From contig OZ243916.1 of the NCBI GenBank assembly GCA_965213675.1, positions 3,008,001 through 3,072,000 of the forward strand: a stretch of 64,000 bases of DNA, written 5' to 3'. The stretch comes from an uncultured Candidatus Binatia bacterium. Its GTDB lineage: Bacteria > Desulfobacterota > Binatia > UBA9968 > JAJDTQ01. Below are positions 40,410 to 48,023 of the stretch, in pieces. Each line of letters begins with the position of its first letter. The stretch's first letter is position 1. The notes beneath the pieces were generated by a model. It ran no database searches. It saw only the letters and a program-made list of their open reading frames with translations, and was not told the origin of the DNA. The position numbers and the translations under genes were made by a program.

Positions 40410-40501
40410 TCTCGTTTCCCACGTAAGGGTGACAAGCCAGAATCGACCAGTCCTTGGTCCGGCCGCTTTCCCGGCCGGCGGCGCGTTTCCACCGGAGCCT
40501 G

Positions 40502-41689
40502 ATGACCCTCTCCCTGTTAATCCTTGCCCTGGTCACCGTCACCCACATCGTCGGGGCTTCGGCGCAGTACGGCATCAACACGTTCGCGCCGTTCTACCAG
40601 GATGAACTTGGCCTCACCCGCGCGCAGGTGGGGCTGTTCTTCACCGCCTTCTATATTGGCATGGCCGGCTTCTCGTTCACCGCCGGGTGGCTGAGCGACC
40701 GGCTCGGCGTGCGCCGGGCGTCGTTCATTGGCCACGTATTCGCTGGCACTGCCGTCATCATTGCCTCGTCGGCGCAGACCTTCGGCTGGGCCTTCGCGTG
40801 TTTCCTCCTCACCGGCCTTGGCTACAGCTTCTTGAACCCGGCCTCCACCAAGGGCGTGCTGATGTGGTTTCGACGGCAGCGCGCCACGGCCATGGGCATC
40901 AAGCAGACCGGCGTGCCCGCGGGCGGAGTGCTCACCGCCCTCGTGGGCGCGCCGATGGCGGCGATATTCGGCTGGCGCGCGACCTTGGCGGGCATGGGCG
41001 TGGTCAATGTGTTGTTCGGGGCGGCTTTCTGGTTCTTGTGGCGCGAGCCCGGCGACGCGGACCGGACCGGGGAAGCCCGGGCGGGGACCGCCGGCGCTCC
41101 CCGGCTGCGGATCCGAAGCCTGCTGGCCCTGAGTTGCGGCACCGCCCTGCTGCTCATCGGACAGATGTCGCTGCTCACCTACCTGCCGCTGTTTCTCAAG
41201 GAGAAACTGGCGTTTTCCACCGTCCACGCGAGCCAGTGGCTGTCCATCACTCAGGGCGGGGCGGTGCTCGGCCGCATCGGCTGGGGCACGGTGAGCGACC
41301 GCATCTACGGCGGCCGGCGCAAGATCGTGCTGGTGCTCATCGGCGGCATCTCGGTGCTGCTGTGCGCGGCGTTGAGCGCGCTGGACAAGGGCGTCTCGCC
41401 GTTCGTCCTGGTGCCAGTGACATTCCTCGGCGGGTTCACCATGATCGGCTATCAGGGCGTCTCCTACTCCCTGATCAGCGAGATCGCCGGGCAGTCCCGC
41501 GCCGGCATGGCCCTGGGCCTGATGATCACCATCAACGCCCTTGGCACCGTGGTGGGCACACCTACCTTCGGCTACATCGTCGACGCCACCGGCTCCTACG
41601 CCATCGCCTGGCAGGCGCTGGCGGGCGTGCTGGCGTTGGGAACGGCGAACATCGCCGTGTTCGTGACCGAGGCGGAGCGGCGGCCTTGA
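40502..41689 (+). CDS. MFS transporter
   Basis: About 12 TM segments, GWLSDRLGVRR motif A and RATAMGIKQTG; alternative start 40454. Confidence 0.85.
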   Translation: MTLSLLILALVTVTHIVGASAQYGINTFAPFYQDELGLTRAQVGLFFTAFYIGMAGFSFTAGWLSDRLGVRRASFIGHVFAGTAVIIASSAQTFGWAFACFLLTGLGYSFLNPASTKGVLMWFRRQRATAMGIKQTGVPAGGVLTALVGAPMAAIFGWRATLAGMGVVNVLFGAAFWFLWREPGDADRTGEARAGTAGAPRLRIRSLLALSCGTALLLIGQMSLLTYLPLFLKEKLAFSTVHASQWLSITQGGAVLGRIGWGTVSDRIYGGRRKIVLVLIGGISVLLCAALSALDKGVSPFVLVPVTFLGGFTMIGYQGVSYSLISEIAGQSRAGMALGLMITINALGTVVGTPTFGYIVDATGSYAIAWQALAGVLALGTANIAVFVTEAERRP

Positions 41690-42006
41690 TCGGGTGTCGT
41701 GTCCCGCAAGTTCCCGCGATCAGGTTTCAGCCATTATGGCGGGCGCAGGTCCGAGGCGCTGCGTCCCAAGTGGGAGTACGTTCACGGCGTCCGCACGGTC
41801 CGGCCCGCACCGAGGCGGACGGTCGTGCGCGAAGCATCGTCGGCGACGGTGACAGGACTGCCGCGCGTCGTGTCGCGCAGACGTGCGCGCGCTATTGTTT
41901 CCCCCCCGGGTTTGATTTACAGTAAACTGAACGGCGTAGTTTACGCTCGGTAAATTCGCGCGCTGTGCGCATCGGCAAGCCGGGCGACAGATTCGGAGAG
42001 ATCGGG

Positions 42007-42243
42007 ATGACTATCTTCAACGAAGGACGACATTCGATCCGCGCGCTGTCTGCGGCGCTTGGGATCATCGCCGGGCGCGCGAAACATTGTTTCGTGCAGG
42101 GGTTGACAAGGGCTGAGGGCTCCCCTCACCATATCGCCGGATCGCCGGATCGCCGGATCGCCGGATCGCCGGATCGCCGGATCGCCGGATCGCCGGATCG
42201 CCGGATCGCCGGATCGCCGGATCGCGCCCGTGTGCCGGCATGA
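42007..42243 (+). other. Putative leader ORF spanning the octamer tract; its TGA overlaps the ATG of the downstream surface protein (ATGA)
   Basis: GGAGAG at 41995-42000 then ATG 42007; MTIFNEGRHSIRALSAALGIIAGRAKHCFVQGLTRAEGSPHH-(IAGSPDRR)n. Confidence 0.5.
42133..42225. repeat. Perfect tandem repeat (ATCGCCGG)x11 plus partial ATCGC
   Basis: Direct count: 88 bp at 42133-42220. Confidence 0.95.
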
Positions 42244-45200
42244 GTGCGCTCGCATGGCGCCGCCGCCCGGGGCACGCCGCCTCCCGGCCTGAGCCTTCCG
42301 CCACCACCGCCCGCCATCTGCGCCGCCACCTCGCCGCGGTACTGCTCGCCCTGCCACTCGCCGCGGTAGCCGCCCCGACACTGGCGATCGCGCAGACCGA
42401 GCCGGTCACCGGCAGTTTTGTCTCCCTCGGCGGCACCGTGCTGCCCGAAGGAGCGGCCGTCACTTTCAACTCGGCCCTCGACAGACTTTTCGCTCGTACA
42501 GAGACACACAAGCTGGAACTGGTCATCGGGGGCACGGCCACGCGCGGGACGGATTACCGGATTGTCTGCATCGAATCAGCCCCGGCCGGGGCCGCCACCT
42601 GCAATGACATCAATGGCGATACCCCTTCGATCACTTTCCATGGTGCGAAGATGATCAGAAACGGCAATCGCACTCGCCGGATCACGGGCCCGCTGCGGCT
42701 GGAGACCATCGAGGACGGCGACTGGAAGGACGAGACAGTCACCCTGCAACTCGGTGGTGGAACGACCCGAACGTTTACAATCACGGATGCCCCGCATTCG
42801 GTGGAAGTGACGTTCGCGACGGATACCTACTCCATCTCTGAGGCTGACAGATTCTTCCAACCCGTCATGAGGTTGGACAAGGCGGCTGGCCGCGATTTTG
42901 TGCTGCCGCTGACCTATGCCAACATGACAGCGACGTCCGGCACGGACTACACAGCGTTATCCGGCGTGACCATCCCGGCGGACGGCAAACAGACCGTCAC
43001 CTTCGACATTCCCGTTAATGACGACAATATCCACGAAGGGAATGAGTCCTTCAGGGTGGGCATCGACTTGTCCAGGCTGCCAGCCGGGGTCACCATGGGC
43101 TCGACCCCCTATGCCACGGTCACAATCAGGGATGACGACCCCGATCCCGGCCCCCCCGGCCTCGTGTTCGATAACGCCCAGCTGAGCTGGAACGAGAATC
43201 AGGGCTGCGGCGAGTTCGAATACTACGATCCATCTGGCAACAAGATTGCCGGCAACACCGCCGAAGCGCGCCGACGGAACGCCCTGGCCGTCTACGCGCC
43301 CGTGCAGTCGGGCAATCTTACATCCCCTGGGGCAAGCATGGAGCTGCCCGCCAGCGCCCCCGGCCCGAGCTACCGGGTCAGGCTGAAGACAAGACCGCAG
43401 ATCCCGGTGAAGGTCACCGTCTATGATCCCAACGACCTCACCTGGTGGGGCAACAACCGCAGCCGGACGCTGAGCCGCGTCTTTGTCGGCCCCGACCGGG
43501 GGGCTGCGAACGGCCGCAACGGTGCCGGCAAGCCGACGCTTACCTTCACGCCGGAGAACTGGAACCAGTGGCAAACCGTCAAGGTCAAGGTGGCCTGCAC
43601 CGATCATTTCCCGGATGCGGTGCCCCTGCAGCACCGCGTGGAAGCGAAATCCAACGGGGGCACTGGCACCATACACGCGTATTCGGGATACAAGAACTTC
43701 AACGACCAGAGATGGACGGTCTGGGTTCGCGTCCAGGAGCAAACGCCGCCGATGGAGATCGTCGCGTCGGGCCTGCCTCCGGCGGGCCAGACGATCACGA
43801 TGGCCGAGGGAGACACCAGGGATTTCAGGATCAGGATCGGCGAAGCGATGCTACCCAGCGGTAGCAGCGGGAGTGTCGCTGTCCATCTCTTTGCCGAGCC
43901 GGTCGGCAATGTGATCGGGGTGACGAGAAGGGACGGGACACCTCACGTCGACGGCATCACCGGCGACACCATGACCTTCACGTCGTCCAATCGCGAACAG
44001 TGGGTGCGTCTGCGAGCCGTCAGCGCCGGCGAAACCAGGCTTGTGGTCTCGGCGGAACGTGACTTCAGCTGGGGCCATGAAACCCAGCGTCACTGGTCGC
44101 CGGAATGGCCGGTCAGGGTCGAGCTCCCCGGCATCTGCGGGCGCACGAAGGCGGTGCGCGACGCCCTTGTCCGCAAGATTTCCGGCATCAGCAACTGCCG
44201 CGACGTGACCCCCGAGCACCTGGCGGCCGTCACCGGCACCCTGGATCTGAACCGCACGAACTTGAGCAGCCTGCAGACGGGCGACTTCCGGGGACTCACC
44301 AAGCTGGAGTGGCTGAGACTGGACGATAACCGGATAGCCTCACTGCCGGCGGGCATATTCGACGACCTCAAGGCGCTGGGTCGACTGGAACTGGACAGAA
44401 ACCAGCTTACGACCCTGCGGCCGGGAGTCTTCGACAAACTCACCTCCCTCTGGAGGCTGGAACTGTATAGAAACTCGATCGCACCGTTGCCGGCGGGCAT
44501 TTTCGACCAGCTTGCCGATCTGTCTCAGCTGGACCTGGACGACATCGACCTGACCACGCTGCCGGCGGACATGTTCGATTCGAACACGAAGTTGACTCAC
44601 CTGTATATGGAAGATAACGAGCTACAGGCGCTACCGGCGAATGTCTTTCACAAGCACAAGAATCTGAGCACGCTGCGGCTGGACGGAAACCCCGGCGAAC
44701 CGTTCCGGCCGACGGCGGATGCCGGCCCCGCACAGACGGTGTCCACGGGTGCGCAAGTCACCCTGTCGGGCACCGCCACCGGCCCCTGGGGTGACAATGT
44801 GAAGTTTCGGTGGCAGCAAGTGGACGGCGCGAGGTCGGAGGACGTCGTCACCCCAGGTGTGACGCTCAGCAGTGACAAGATCGCCGCACCCACCTTTACC
44901 GCCCCGGCCGCACCCACGGTCCTGCACTTCAGGCTGGACACAAGACCAAGCTCGAGCGACTCCCTGGATTTTGCAGGTCTCGGCAACAGCGTCGACTGGG
45001 TCACCATCACCGTCACCGGCGGCCAGGGCTCGCCCGCGCAGGAGGTAGAAGCGGCACATGTCGAAGCACCGTCCTGCGTCTCCGACGCCCTGCTGGCCGA
45101 CGTCCATGAGTATGCGGGCGAGACCTGGCGGACTTCGCCGGGCCATGTCGCGCGCTGGAGCCGGGTGCTGGCCGCCTTCGGGGTGGACAACGCCTACCGC

Positions 45201-48023
45201 AGCAACCCGATGACCGTCGCCGAGGCAGAGGCGCAGGCGGACCGTGGCCTCAAACGCTGGGTGCCGGTGGTGCCGGCGCTGACATGCCTGGCGGCGGCAC
45301 CGGAGGAGGTGGCACCGGAAGAACAGCCGGAACCGGCCGAGGTCCAGCCGGCGACCCCCGCCACGCCCGCACTCAGCCTCTCGGCGGGGTCCGCCGTGGA
45401 CGAGGGCGGTACTGCGACCTTCACTGTCACGGCCGACCCGGCGCCGCAGTCCGACCTGACGATTGCCTGGACCGTCGCCCAGAGCGGCGATTACCTGGCC
45501 GCGCCCGGCGCGGGCAGCCGGACGTTGGTGCTGAACGCAGGCACGACCAGCGCCGATCTCACGGTGGCGACAGTGGACGATGCGGCGGACGAGGCCGACG
45601 GCTCGGTGTCCGTCACCCTCGGCGCGGCCACGGGCTACACCGTGGCCACAGGCAAGGGCAGCGCCGCGGTGGCGGTGCGCGACGATGACGAGCCGGTGGT
45701 ACGCATCACCGCCGGCAGCGGGGTAACGGAAGGTGCCTCGGCTTCCTTCACGGTCACGGCCAGCCCGGTGCCAGCCACACCGCTCGACGTGACCCTGACC
45801 GTCGGCCAGAGCGGCGACTTCGCCGCCTCGGGCGCGACCGGATCGCGGACGGTCACCATCCCGGTCACGGGCAGCGCCACCTTCGAGGTCACCACGGTGG
45901 ATGACGGCACGGACGAGCCGGACGGCTCGATCACGGCAACTGTCGATACCGGCACCGGCTACACCGTGGCGGCATCGCCGGACAACGCGGCCACGGTGGC
46001 GGTGTCCGACAACGATGCGGCGTCGTCGGGTCCGACGATCTCGATTGCCGATGCCACGCTCAAGGAGAACGGAATAACGGGGAATTTCAAGGTGACGTTG
46101 AGCGAGCCGGTGAACTGGCCGGTCGTCGTCTACTACGCGACGCGGGATTCAACGCCGGTGTCGGCCGTGGCGGGCCAGGACTACCTGGCGTGGAAGCGGT
46201 CCTGGCGGCTGCGGGCCCGGTTCAGGCCGGGGCAGACGGAAACGCTGATCCACGTCCGCCTCTACAACGACAGCCATGACGAGGGTCCGGAGACCTTCGA
46301 GATGGTGCTGTTCGACGCGGACGTGAACGGTCCGCCCGGGGTGTCGGTGTCGATTGCGGACGGGGTTGCGGTGGGCACCATCACCAACTCGGACCCGATG
46401 CCGGCGGCGTGGCTGGCGCGTTTCGGTCGCACGACGGCGGAACAGGCGCTGGACGGCATAGCCGGGCGCATCGCGGCGTCGCGCGACGCCGGGGTGCAGG
46501 GCACCATCGCGGGACAGGCGCTGGGCTTCGATCCCCGCTCCTCCGGCTCGCAGGCAGGCCCCGACGGATCGGTTGGCGCAGCGAGCGGGAATGCTGCCCC
46601 TGGCAGCCTGTCCGGCACTGGCCGGCTGGTGCAGACCGATGTCGCCCGCGGCCGTTTCGGCGCTGGCGGTGCGGGATCGGCATTGGGCCATGACACTCAT
46701 GGCTTCGCTTTCGGCAGCAACGGCGCGCAGTCCTACTCGATGACGGCCCGGGAAGCCTTGCTGGGCAGCAGCTTCACGGCGACCGGGGAGAAGGACGGCA
46801 TGGGCGGCAGCGTGGCCTTCTGGGGCCGGGCCGCGCAGTCGAGCTTCGACGGCCGCGAGGGGACGTTCTCGCTCGACGGCGAGGCCACCACGGCCATGCT
46901 GGGAGCCGACTATGGGCGCGGCAACTGGCTGGCCGGAGTGGCCCTGATGCGGAGCAGCGGGGATGGCGGCTATGCCGACAGGGAATCGGGGTCCGGGGCA
47001 GGCAACGGTACGGATGCCGTGGGCTGCCCTCAACCTCCGGATGCCGAAGCGCGGAGGGTCGTGTGCAGCGGCGCCGTGCGGGAGGGCGATGGTGAGGTGG
47101 AGGCGTCGCTGACGGCGGCGGTTCCCTATGCCGCGCTCCGGGTCTCGGAGCGGCTGAAGCTCTGGGGCGCGGTGGGCTATGGTGCCGGCGACGTGACGCT
47201 CGAGCCGGAGGTAGGCGGTTCCCTCACCTCCGACATCTCCTGGACCATGGCGGCGGCTGGCCTGCGCGGCGACGTGATCGCGCCCCCGGCGGAAGGGTCG
47301 GGTCCGGCCCTGGCGGTGACCTCGGACTCGCTCTGGGCACGCACCAGCTCGGACAAGACCCACGAGCTGGCGGCGTCCGATTCCGACGTGACGCGCTTCC
47401 GGCTCGGTCTGGAGGGAAGCTGGAAGGCCGCGCTGGCGCGGGGCAGCCATGTGACGCCCAAGCTGGAGCTGGGCATGCGCCAGGACGGCGGCGATGCCGA
47501 GACCGGCTTCGGGGTGGAAGTCGGCGGCGGTCTGGCCTGGGTCAACCCGGCCCTCGGGCTCTCCCTCGACCTGTCGGGCCGGACCCTGATTTCCCATGCT
47601 TCGGACGATCTGGAGGACCAGGGGTTTGCGGCGGCGCTGGCCTGGGATCCCGGTCCAGCGACCGCGCGGGGTCCCTCTCTGACGCTGACCCAGGACTGGG
47701 GCGGCGCCGCGCAGGGCGGGCTCGACGCGCTGTTCCGGACCGATCCGCTGGCGGACCGCACGGGCAGCGGCGAAACCGCCGCCCGCTGGACGGCGGAGGC
47801 GGCATACGGATTCCCGGCCTTCTCGGGGCGCTTCACCGGCAGCCCGCATATGGGGCTCGGTCTGGCCACCGGCGCGCGCGACTACAGCGTGGGGTGGCGT
47901 CTCACCCCGGCGACCCGCGCCAACGCGCCCGATGTCTCCTTCGGGCTGAAGGGGACGCGCCGGGAGAGCGACTGGACGGAGCCGGAGCACACCATGGGGT
48001 TCGAAGCGACCGCGCGGTGGTAG
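42240..48023 (+). CDS. Large surface protein/adhesin: signal peptide, Calx-beta-like domains, 24-aa LRRs, PKD-like domain, C-terminal autotransporter-like beta-barrel
   Basis: LAAVLLALPLAAVAAPTLAIAQ signal; six LxLxxNxLxxLPxGxFxxLxxL-type repeats; several VxVxDDD/DEPDG Calx-like units; amphipathic beta C-terminus ending in W. Confidence 0.8.
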   Translation: MSALAWRRRPGHAASRPEPSATTARHLRRHLAAVLLALPLAAVAAPTLAIAQTEPVTGSFVSLGGTVLPEGAAVTFNSALDRLFARTETHKLELVIGGTATRGTDYRIVCIESAPAGAATCNDINGDTPSITFHGAKMIRNGNRTRRITGPLRLETIEDGDWKDETVTLQLGGGTTRTFTITDAPHSVEVTFATDTYSISEADRFFQPVMRLDKAAGRDFVLPLTYANMTATSGTDYTALSGVTIPADGKQTVTFDIPVNDDNIHEGNESFRVGIDLSRLPAGVTMGSTPYATVTIRDDDPDPGPPGLVFDNAQLSWNENQGCGEFEYYDPSGNKIAGNTAEARRRNALAVYAPVQSGNLTSPGASMELPASAPGPSYRVRLKTRPQIPVKVTVYDPNDLTWWGNNRSRTLSRVFVGPDRGAANGRNGAGKPTLTFTPENWNQWQTVKVKVACTDHFPDAVPLQHRVEAKSNGGTGTIHAYSGYKNFNDQRWTVWVRVQEQTPPMEIVASGLPPAGQTITMAEGDTRDFRIRIGEAMLPSGSSGSVAVHLFAEPVGNVIGVTRRDGTPHVDGITGDTMTFTSSNREQWVRLRAVSAGETRLVVSAERDFSWGHETQRHWSPEWPVRVELPGICGRTKAVRDALVRKISGISNCRDVTPEHLAAVTGTLDLNRTNLSSLQTGDFRGLTKLEWLRLDDNRIASLPAGIFDDLKALGRLELDRNQLTTLRPGVFDKLTSLWRLELYRNSIAPLPAGIFDQLADLSQLDLDDIDLTTLPADMFDSNTKLTHLYMEDNELQALPANVFHKHKNLSTLRLDGNPGEPFRPTADAGPAQTVSTGAQVTLSGTATGPWGDNVKFRWQQVDGARSEDVVTPGVTLSSDKIAAPTFTAPAAPTVLHFRLDTRPSSSDSLDFAGLGNSVDWVTITVTGGQGSPAQEVEAAHVEAPSCVSDALLADVHEYAGETWRTSPGHVARWSRVLAAFGVDNAYRSNPMTVAEAEAQADRGLKRWVPVVPALTCLAAAPEEVAPEEQPEPAEVQPATPATPALSLSAGSAVDEGGTATFTVTADPAPQSDLTIAWTVAQSGDYLAAPGAGSRTLVLNAGTTSADLTVATVDDAADEADGSVSVTLGAATGYTVATGKGSAAVAVRDDDEPVVRITAGSGVTEGASASFTVTASPVPATPLDVTLTVGQSGDFAASGATGSRTVTIPVTGSATFEVTTVDDGTDEPDGSITATVDTGTGYTVAASPDNAATVAVSDNDAASSGPTISIADATLKENGITGNFKVTLSEPVNWPVVVYYATRDSTPVSAVAGQDYLAWKRSWRLRARFRPGQTETLIHVRLYNDSHDEGPETFEMVLFDADVNGPPGVSVSIADGVAVGTITNSDPMPAAWLARFGRTTAEQALDGIAGRIAASRDAGVQGTIAGQALGFDPRSSGSQAGPDGSVGAASGNAAPGSLSGTGRLVQTDVARGRFGAGGAGSALGHDTHGFAFGSNGAQSYSMTAREALLGSSFTATGEKDGMGGSVAFWGRAAQSSFDGREGTFSLDGEATTAMLGADYGRGNWLAGVALMRSSGDGGYADRESGSGAGNGTDAVGCPQPPDAEARRVVCSGAVREGDGEVEASLTAAVPYAALRVSERLKLWGAVGYGAGDVTLEPEVGGSLTSDISWTMAAAGLRGDVIAPPAEGSGPALAVTSDSLWARTSSDKTHELAASDSDVTRFRLGLEGSWKAALARGSHVTPKLELGMRQDGGDAETGFGVEVGGGLAWVNPALGLSLDLSGRTLISHASDDLEDQGFAAALAWDPGPATARGPSLTLTQDWGGAAQGGLDALFRTDPLADRTGSGETAARWTAEAAYGFPAFSGRFTGSPHMGLGLATGARDYSVGWRLTPATRANAPDVSFGLKGTRRESDWTEPEHTMGFEATARW

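Follow-up and report, generated by a model that had tools for sequence, protein, structure and literature searches.

An octamer tract as a candidate frameshift switch in the 5' coding region of a giant adhesin gene of an uncultured Candidatus Binatia bacterium

Repeat tract and reading frames at the locus

The window analyzed here is a stretch of 64,000 nucleotides (nt) from an uncultured Candidatus Binatia bacterium (GenBank assembly GCA_965213675.1, contig OZ243916.1, positions 3,008,001 to 3,072,000). It contains a leader open reading frame (ORF) which runs through a tandem octamer tract and ends on the start codon of a 1927-residue ORF, encoding a giant surface protein (P0001). The tract consists of (ATCGCCGG)11 without any mismatch at 42133-42220, and a partial unit ATCGC extends it to 42225. 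Tandem Repeats Finder described 42133-42225 as period 8 with 11.6 copies, 100% matches and a score of 186, by far the highest among the 36 rows obtained for the window. Three consecutive units matched nine times in the window but not once in 100 dinucleotide-preserving shuffles.

The leader ORF opens at ATG 42007 behind a Shine-Dalgarno (SD)-like GGAGAG. Its stop TGA (42241-42243) overlaps ATG 42240 of the 1927-residue ORF, and none of the motifs GGAG, GAGG and AGGA occurs in the 20 nt preceding this second ATG. At 11 units, the leader stop thus lies on a downstream start that has no SD of its own. The array is open in all three frames, of which the frame of the 1927-residue ORF is termed P. 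As derived from frame reading and coordinates modulo 3, not from altered sequences, 10 or 13 units join the leader to the 1927-residue ORF via SRPCAG-M, and 11 or 14 units give the ATGA overlap. With 9 or 12 units the leader passes the ATG and ends at TGA 42290-42292, which also closes a mini-ORF in frame P+2. A first-pass annotation of this DNA had described the tract, the SD-like GGAGAG, ATG 42007, the reading as IAGSPDRR and the SD-less ATG 42240, and had predicted fused, coupled and over-running states from the copy number. The former were all found again on the sequence, and the frame arithmetic is correct. The coordinates are listed in Table 1.

Table 1. Features of the repeat locus in the window (frame P is that of the 1927-residue ORF).
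Feature	Position	Strand	Remarks
Terminator-like hairpin and T-run	41874..41889	+	3' of the MFS transporter gene
Conserved 5' region upstream of the leader ATG, with SD-like GGAGAG (41995-42000)	41960..42006	+	found also in array-less paralogues
Leader ORF, 78 codons and TGA	42007..42243	+	frame P+1; begins MTIFNEGRHSIRAL, then array as IAGSPDRR
TTGACA in the leader ORF	42103..42108	+	codons TTG ACA (Leu Thr); does not vary within the family
Array (ATCGCCGG)11 and ATCGC	42133..42225	+	sequence reading, Tandem Repeats Finder, shuffles
ATGA, start of the 1927-residue ORF (frame P) on top of the leader stop (frame P+1)	42240..42243	+	
Giant surface protein P0001	42240..48023	+	pre-signal extension, signal peptide, Calx-beta and LRR passenger, C-terminal beta domain
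Mini-ORF of 12 codons, MAPPPGARRLPA and stop	42254..42292	+	frame P+2; ends at conserved CCTGAG (42288-42293)

Occurrence of the cassette

The genome to which the window belongs (G000; 4.53 Mb, 21 contigs) holds three further octamer loci with flanks homologous to the window locus, which is called locus A (n = 11) in the following. These are locus B (C1:2407385-2407640, 32 copies), locus C (C1:800363-800722, 45 copies) and locus D (C1:2422584-2422599, 2 copies). The same build with other units was found as (AGCCG)31 at G000:C1:3713837-3713991 (-) and as (GTCGAGCC)8 at G000:C1:1134042-1134105 (+). In these two loci the leader ORF ends in ..EGLTN (GGGGTTGACAAAT), and the interval between array and signal peptide is without a start codon. 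The cassette heads at least six adhesin genes in G000. This genome contains at least about 15 paralogues of the conserved C-terminal beta domain, some of them with ordinary signal peptides. They include open frames of 7,359 and 6,749 residues (e.g. in C1 3675177-3697253 and 1529599-1549845). The conserved 5' region shows 90% identity (query 1-51) to G000:C1:2943108-2943158 and G012:C1:1076844-1076894. Homopolymer tracts also occur in G000, namely a poly-C tract of 22 at C1:399035-399056 and a poly-G tract of 18 at C14:36664-36681.

Among 24 other genomes of the genus, the array was identified in one (G012, 21 copies). A search of the genus with CCTCCCGGCCTGAR gave no cassette outside G000 and G012. 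Of the 13 matches inspected, 11 lie in one conserved housekeeping gene starting MELDNELVGSEYKYGF, which we take to be sufB-like; L067, L069 and L071 match by chance as well.

A scan of 185,579 species genomes revealed 38 stretches, 22 of which carry the cassette flanks. The remaining 16 (Streptomyces, Paraburkholderia, Pseudomonas and others) have 3-9 units in flanks that are not shared, and were set aside. According to their record titles, the 22 cassette stretches belong to Alphaproteobacteria, Rhodospirillales, Paracoccaceae, Rhodobacter, Arenicellales, Candidatus Binatia, Gammaproteobacteria, Nitrospira and Gemmatimonadota. The cassette in the Candidatus Binatia record looks identical to the G012 locus. 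Since several records are single-chromosome assemblies, the spread over Binatia, Alpha- and Gammaproteobacteria does not stem from mis-binning, which could account for the short Nitrospira and Gemmatimonadota contigs. In metagenomes, a scan with the window-specific junction gave no match, and a scan with a generic junction gave four stretches, three of them cassettes.

All complete passengers share the C-terminal end motif ...RATRRES...LRW. Over the C-terminal 420 residues, the window protein is 55-70% identical to the proteins of six loci from other classes. Locus B shows 82-86% DNA identity across 2-3.7 kb to L028 and L042, from a metagenome-assembled genome (MAG) titled Alphaproteobacteria. 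Because of this identity and the scarcity of the cassette in the genus of the window (2 of 28 genomes, G000 and G012), the comparison points to a recent horizontal exchange of whole adhesin genes between classes. The host bacteria are probably sponge-associated or holobiont members, as judged from record naming and two papers. One of these lists SB06xx bins among Poribacteria symbionts (PMC7883664), and the other concerns sponge Binatota (PMC9999580).

Conserved anatomy and variation of the array

The anatomy was compared over 26 loci, the four own ones (A-D) and 22 fetched ones. The cassette starts with an SD-like motif and ATG, followed by a leader ORF of about 30-45 codons and by TTGACA, read TTG ACA. 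After 15-23 nt (23 nt in 15 loci) comes (T/C)ATA|AT, read ATA ATC, and then the array and the junction. A conserved CCTCCCGGCCTGAG, an extension rich in Ser, Pro and Arg, an R(N/H)LRR signal peptide and the passenger complete the order.

Two junction subtypes can be distinguished. Subtype 1 (CATGAGYGCG..CGCATGG) is found in A, D, L023, L046, L050, L053, L055, L056 and L059, and also in L064. It has an ATG (GTG in L055) in the passenger frame, 1-29 nt past the array and never with an SD, and an overlapping TGA in frame P+1. At this start, 9 of the 10 loci have ATGAG or GTGAG, with Ser encoded by AGY throughout; L059 has ATGG. Subtype 2 (TTCATGGTGGCGCCGCCTAAGG) is without an in-frame start. Among the nine subtype 1 loci that could be scored, D and L056 are fused, A and L023 are coupled or nearly so, and L046, L050, L053, L055 and L059 overrun the start. 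A mini-ORF of the type M-A/V-A-P-P...A-stop, with a fixed length from cATGg to ccTGAg, is kept in most cassette loci of both subtypes.

Across the family the array has 2 to 49 copies, and perfect arrays reach 360-392 bp. Other units at the same position elsewhere are ATCACCGG, GTCGCCGG and ATCGTCGG, and unit lengths are never divisible by 3. Examples are (ATCGCCGG)14 followed by (GTCGCCGG)8 in L084, (ATCACCGG)13 in L085, mixed ATCGCCGG/ATCACCGG blocks in L089 and (ATCGTCGG)49 in L092. Such homogenized blocks of variant units show, as far as can be read from the sequences, mutation followed by spread inside arrays.

Copy numbers differ between near-identical flanks. Locus B with 32 copies and locus C with 45 copies have flanks that are 99.2% identical over 655 nt, and the flanks of locus B and L034 (21 copies) are 97.2% identical. 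The 110-nt flanks compared between L028 (13 copies) and L042 (29 copies) are identical. Locus D has 2 copies and the related database protein P0004 about 5-6. These differences between paralogues and orthologues indirectly suggest that the arrays are hypermutable. The idea of a repeat-driven contingency locus, proposed in the first-pass annotation, is borne out to this extent. Its suggestion of a portable cassette likewise gained support from the recurrence of leader and array at the six loci of G000 and in other classes and phyla.

In four sequencing runs (X1-X4, from one study, possibly that of the source sample), the Logan contigs containing the locus break at the array. For window 42133-42255, the word depth, summed over contigs, was about 7,000-44,000 over the array and about 5-50 in the unique flanks. 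In these runs the array borders on several different flanks, a hint that loci of this kind are numerous in the communities sampled.

Position of the translation start

The reading frame was scored at 21 loci, leaving out L024, L040 and L054 at contig ends as well as L032 and L060, which have no passenger. Leader ATG and long ORF share a frame at five of them, namely C (45 units), D (2), L026 (9), L041 (29) and L056 (14). Six loci (B, C, L026, L028, L034 and L042) contain no ATG, GTG or TTG in the passenger frame for 200 nt past the array; for these, the leader ATG is the only usable start. In two array-less paralogues (locus E and C1:2590890), a leader-like ATG, the extension and the signal peptide all lie in one frame. 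The database proteins P0004, P0013 and P0017 are fusions of leader, array and passenger, and so are P0028 and P0044, with differently starting N-termini. Tandem IAGSPDRR was present in 26 of the 152 database representatives examined. Four of them have at least 550 residues, and the other 22 are leader ORFs of 82-285 residues with off-frame tails, although some of these short proteins may be cut by contig ends.

The leader frame is kept open ahead of the array. Over the 96 nt before TTGACA it is open in 23 of 25 loci, compared with 3 and 14 of 25 for the other two frames. For 15 lineage representatives the same interval is open in the leader frame in 13 and in the other frames in 3 and 8. An SD-like motif precedes the ATG or GTG in 20 of 26 loci and was not found in L024, L033, L041 and L059; in L055 and L060 the best start candidate of the script differed from the ATG chosen by eye.

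Past the array both off-frames are closed. The first stop in frame P+1 lies at most 54 nt past the array in 19 of 21 loci (ATGA, GTGA, CCTAAGG or CTAG), and that in frame P+2 at most 82 nt past it in all 21, mostly as CCTGA(G/A). The codons behind these stops are little used in frame P; by a rough ORF proxy for G000, CCT accounts for 12.8% of Pro codons and CTA for 2.9% of Leu codons. Conserved stops in both off-frames would be expected if ribosomes arrive from upstream in any frame. In the out-of-frame loci, passenger ORFs of about 1,450-2,050 residues are intact.

The fused loci, the six loci without another start and the closure of the off-frames by conserved stops lead us to regard the leader ATG as most likely the true start of the family, and the array as a frameshift switch inside an extension that precedes the signal peptide. 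The first-pass annotation had treated the leader as an upstream ORF. The leader is more than that, as it forms the adhesin N-terminus in paralogues and database proteins. Of the three states proposed in the annotation, the arithmetic and the conserved ATGA (9 of 10) and CCTGAG stops fit; the fused form, however, appears to be both the ON state and the basic design of the family.

Proposed switch and points against it

With a probability of roughly 0.6, we interpret the octamer tract as a slipped-strand contingency switch in the 5' coding region of an autotransporter-like giant adhesin gene. Ribosomes would start at the SD-preceded ATG 42007 and translate the array as (IAGSPDRR)n. Only at n = 1 modulo 3 (10, 13 and so on) would they cross the disordered extension ahead of the signal peptide without leaving the frame, and go on to translate signal peptide and passenger (ON). 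With the 11 units of the assembly, the leader in frame P+1 would stop at the TGA over the SD-less ATG 42240, and the protein would be off or weakly produced via termination and reinitiation. At n = 0 modulo 3 the leader would overrun ATG 42240 and stop at the conserved CCTGAG (off). Replication slippage would add or remove units and thereby shift the locus between these states. The cassette of leader, hexamers, array, off-frame stops, extension and signal peptide would act as a module of several paralogous adhesin genes, exchanged between classes and phyla. Slippage rate, translation from ATG 42007, reinitiation at ATG 42240 and phenotype are the inferred parts of this model.

The locus has the sequence features of a translational contingency locus based on a simple sequence repeat. 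A perfect non-triplet repeat lies in the 5' coding region and is read by an ORF with SD and ATG, and in-frame and out-of-frame alleles coexist across the family with an intact downstream ORF.

Several observations weigh against this interpretation. At 16 of the 21 loci the leader ATG and the long ORF are in different frames; the 5 in-frame loci make up less than one third of the 21, a shortfall that is not significant by a rough estimate. Of the in-frame loci, D has no more than 2 units. In locus C (G000:C1:799330-800843), where alone among the long-array loci of G000 the leader is in frame, the ORF stops 1,058 nt past the array and the passenger resumes in another frame, be it by a frameshift, a pseudogene or an assembly error. 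The ratio of non-synonymous to synonymous differences (pN/pS) of the leader is 0.8-1.5 and no better than in other frames, so that there is no purifying selection on the leader peptide. In the 180 nt past the array the signal is weak, with a pN/pS of 0.68 in frame P vs. 0.88 and 0.97 in the other frames, calculated from 8 loci in non-independent pairs. From these values, leader and extension seem to behave as nearly unconstrained spacers that need only to stay open. A Sec signal peptide after 100-220 residues is unusual. The assembled copy number could be an assembly error. Finally, perfect promoter-like hexamers in the leader ORF, adjoining the array, are left unexplained by the switch model.

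Promoter-like hexamers and alternative explanations

At the window locus, a degenerate -10-like CCATAT (42129-42134) follows TTGACA after 20 nt and adjoins the array. In five chromosome-level MAGs, CTTGACA-N20-23-YATAAT matched at 18 places (L083-L100), while a reversed control gave none. Of these matches, 17 run straight into an octamer array of 4-49 copies. The spacing of the hexamers in the family loci is 15 or 20-23 nt and never 16-18, the only case of 17 being L060, which has no passenger. This is not the spacing of a sigma-70 promoter. A sigma32-like or MerR-type promoter was considered by eye and dropped, as box sequence and spacing are inconsistent with it. No conserved RNA hairpin was found between TTGACA and TATA, with 0 covarying pairs in 12 sequences. 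A Dam-methylation switch, suggested by GATC in the unit, was also dropped, since the sister arrays (AGCCG)n and (GTCGAGCC)n contain no GATC.

The hexamers could form a second, transcriptional layer on top of the frameshift switch, as an internal promoter or as a sigma-dependent pause at the array. Such a layer belongs to a wider proposal, in which a mobile switch module would be shared across phyla within one animal host. The module would combine the leader with SD and ATG, the embedded TTGACA-N20-23-TATAAT, a hypermutable array and fixed off-frame stops. It would give independent stochastic control of the adhesins, with three levels at ATGA junctions. We put this forward tentatively, as an unlikely extension of the frameshift switch.

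A different role for the array is suggested if TTGACA...TATAAT is a real promoter. Transcription would then start in the first units, the array would be a 5' untranslated region (UTR) tuning mRNA fate or translation, and the leader ORF would be irrelevant. The conservation of TTGACA and (T/C)ATAAT at the nucleotide level with rare codons and the position of TATAAT, which abuts the array, agree with such a rheostat. The run of 17 of the 18 hexamer pairs into an array, with nothing in the reversed control, the lack of hexamers in the array-less paralogues and the unconstrained leader peptide agree with it as well. However, a spacing of 15 or 20-23 nt fits a promoter poorly, six loci would be left without a start codon past the array, and where the other subtype has an ATG there, no SD precedes it. 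Furthermore, the leader frame is selectively open, mostly from an ATG with SD, both off-frames carry conserved stops past the array, and fused full-length ORFs exist. We therefore consider an untranslated array doubtful.

In the subfamily with its own ATG, to which the window locus belongs, the fused, coupled and occluded states might be three selected expression levels rather than by-products of an ON/OFF switch. The arithmetic holds, the stop overlaps the start as ATGAG or GTGAG in 9 of 10 subfamily loci with Ser always AGY, the CCTGA(G/A) stop in frame P+2 is universal, and all three states are present among the 9 scored loci. On the other hand, the other subfamily is without such an ATG and thus ON/OFF only, the ATG equivalent to 42240 is out of frame in locus D, and ATG and Ser codon may persist by recent common descent. 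A designed three-level switch is accordingly given little credence here.

A neutral expansion, in which microsatellites grow selfishly where a disordered region tolerates them and most loci are dead, would match the out-of-frame majority (16 of 21), the frameshifted locus C, the fragmented locus E and the unconstrained leader peptide, but is very improbable in view of the intact passenger ORFs of 1,450-2,050 residues in out-of-frame loci, arrays that are perfect over up to 360-392 bp, the conservation of the cassette including its stops across classes and the 55-70% identity of the C-terminal domain across taxa.

Comparison with known systems

The frameshift switch, as proposed here, resembles several known systems. 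Neisseria opa genes carry (CTCTT)n in the region coding for the signal peptide. As in opa, a non-triplet unit lies within the 5' coding sequence, ahead of the part for the mature protein, the genes encode outer-membrane adhesins, and many paralogous loci occur per genome, each array in its own frame. The opa repeat encodes the hydrophobic core, whereas the octamer, with 2-49 copies, encodes a hydrophilic extension before the signal peptide. The hosts are also different, being uncultured, probably sponge-associated and from several classes; the cassette is shared across phyla, and one subfamily has a second start overlapped by a stop. The autotransporter genes autA and autB of Neisseria meningitidis and lav of Haemophilus influenzae contain (AAGC)/(GCAA) repeats. 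They share with the present locus a simple sequence repeat in the 5' coding part of an autotransporter gene with ON/OFF switching by frameshift. In contrast, they are tetranucleotide repeats at single loci of pathogens, without a conserved leader module, embedded hexamers or spread across phyla.

Translational coupling at overlapping stop and start codons (ATGA) is a general bacterial mechanism. The 11-unit leader resembles it in that its stop overlaps an SD-less start. Here, however, the overlap exists in only one of three frames set by the repeat, so that any coupling would itself be phase-variable.

Two papers describe (ATCTTTC)n as a 5'-UTR repeat of H. influenzae hmw1A and hmw2A (PMC12721329; PMC8262952). 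In both systems a non-triplet repeat of many copies separates a giant adhesin gene from promoter-like elements, and graded states are possible. The hmw repeats are untranslated in these accounts. Here, an ORF with SD and ATG crosses the array and at some loci is fused to the adhesin, and the hexamers are not spaced like those of a promoter. An untranslated repeat between a promoter and a start with its own ribosome-binding site is not what we find, given this spacing, the lack of an SD at 42240 and the six start-less loci. By analogy, the locus would be closest in its working to the translational contingency type of Neisseria opa and autA and less like the hmw1A rheostat.

To our knowledge, repeat-driven contingency genes are documented almost entirely in vertebrate pathogens and commensals. 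The same logic would operate here in uncultured, probably sponge-associated bacteria. If this is true, symbiont communities would stochastically vary their surfaces against host recognition or phages via a common, exchanged module. No description turned up in a literature search for the octamer or the peptide repeat, or for sponges and symbionts together with phase variation or tandem repeats, although supplements of sponge-MAG papers might list these genes. The locus differs from known systems by its octamer unit, the position before the signal peptide, a shared leader module that contains hexamers and fixed off-frame stops, an optional second start that overlaps a stop, and the spread across classes of uncultured bacteria.

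The giant protein and its gene neighbourhood

P0001 shows domain matches to Calx-beta and LRR_8. Its signal peptide, read by eye from the translation, lies at about 42312-42392 (RHLRRHLAAVLLALPLAAVAAPTLAIA-QT), and the conserved C-terminal beta domain at about 46761-48020. For the C-terminal 12-stranded beta-barrel translocator of type Va autotransporters no Pfam match, including PF03797, was obtained, and the C-terminal domain had no sequence match in the PDB. The C-terminal 420 residues matched the autotransporter barrel profile TIGR01414 with an E-value of 0.016 and 14.3 bits, below the cut-off of 16. An AlphaFold model of this domain is all-beta and of low confidence (mean predicted local distance difference test score of 53). 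Foldseek with this low-confidence model gave weak matches (E >= 4e-3), all of them outer-membrane barrels, including EspP, TamA and BamA. We call P0001 autotransporter-like on the basis of these weak profile and fold matches. The extended signal peptide region ESPR (PF13018) was not matched in P0001 (E up to 0.01) nor in P0003, the leader-fused N-terminus of locus D (E up to 10).

Upstream of the cassette lie genes for chorismate synthase, 3-dehydroquinate synthase and an MFS transporter (40454-41689). Since a terminator-like hairpin follows the transporter gene, the sequence suggests that the cassette has its own transcript start between 41889 and 42007. Downstream of the giant gene, gyrB and gyrA are located.

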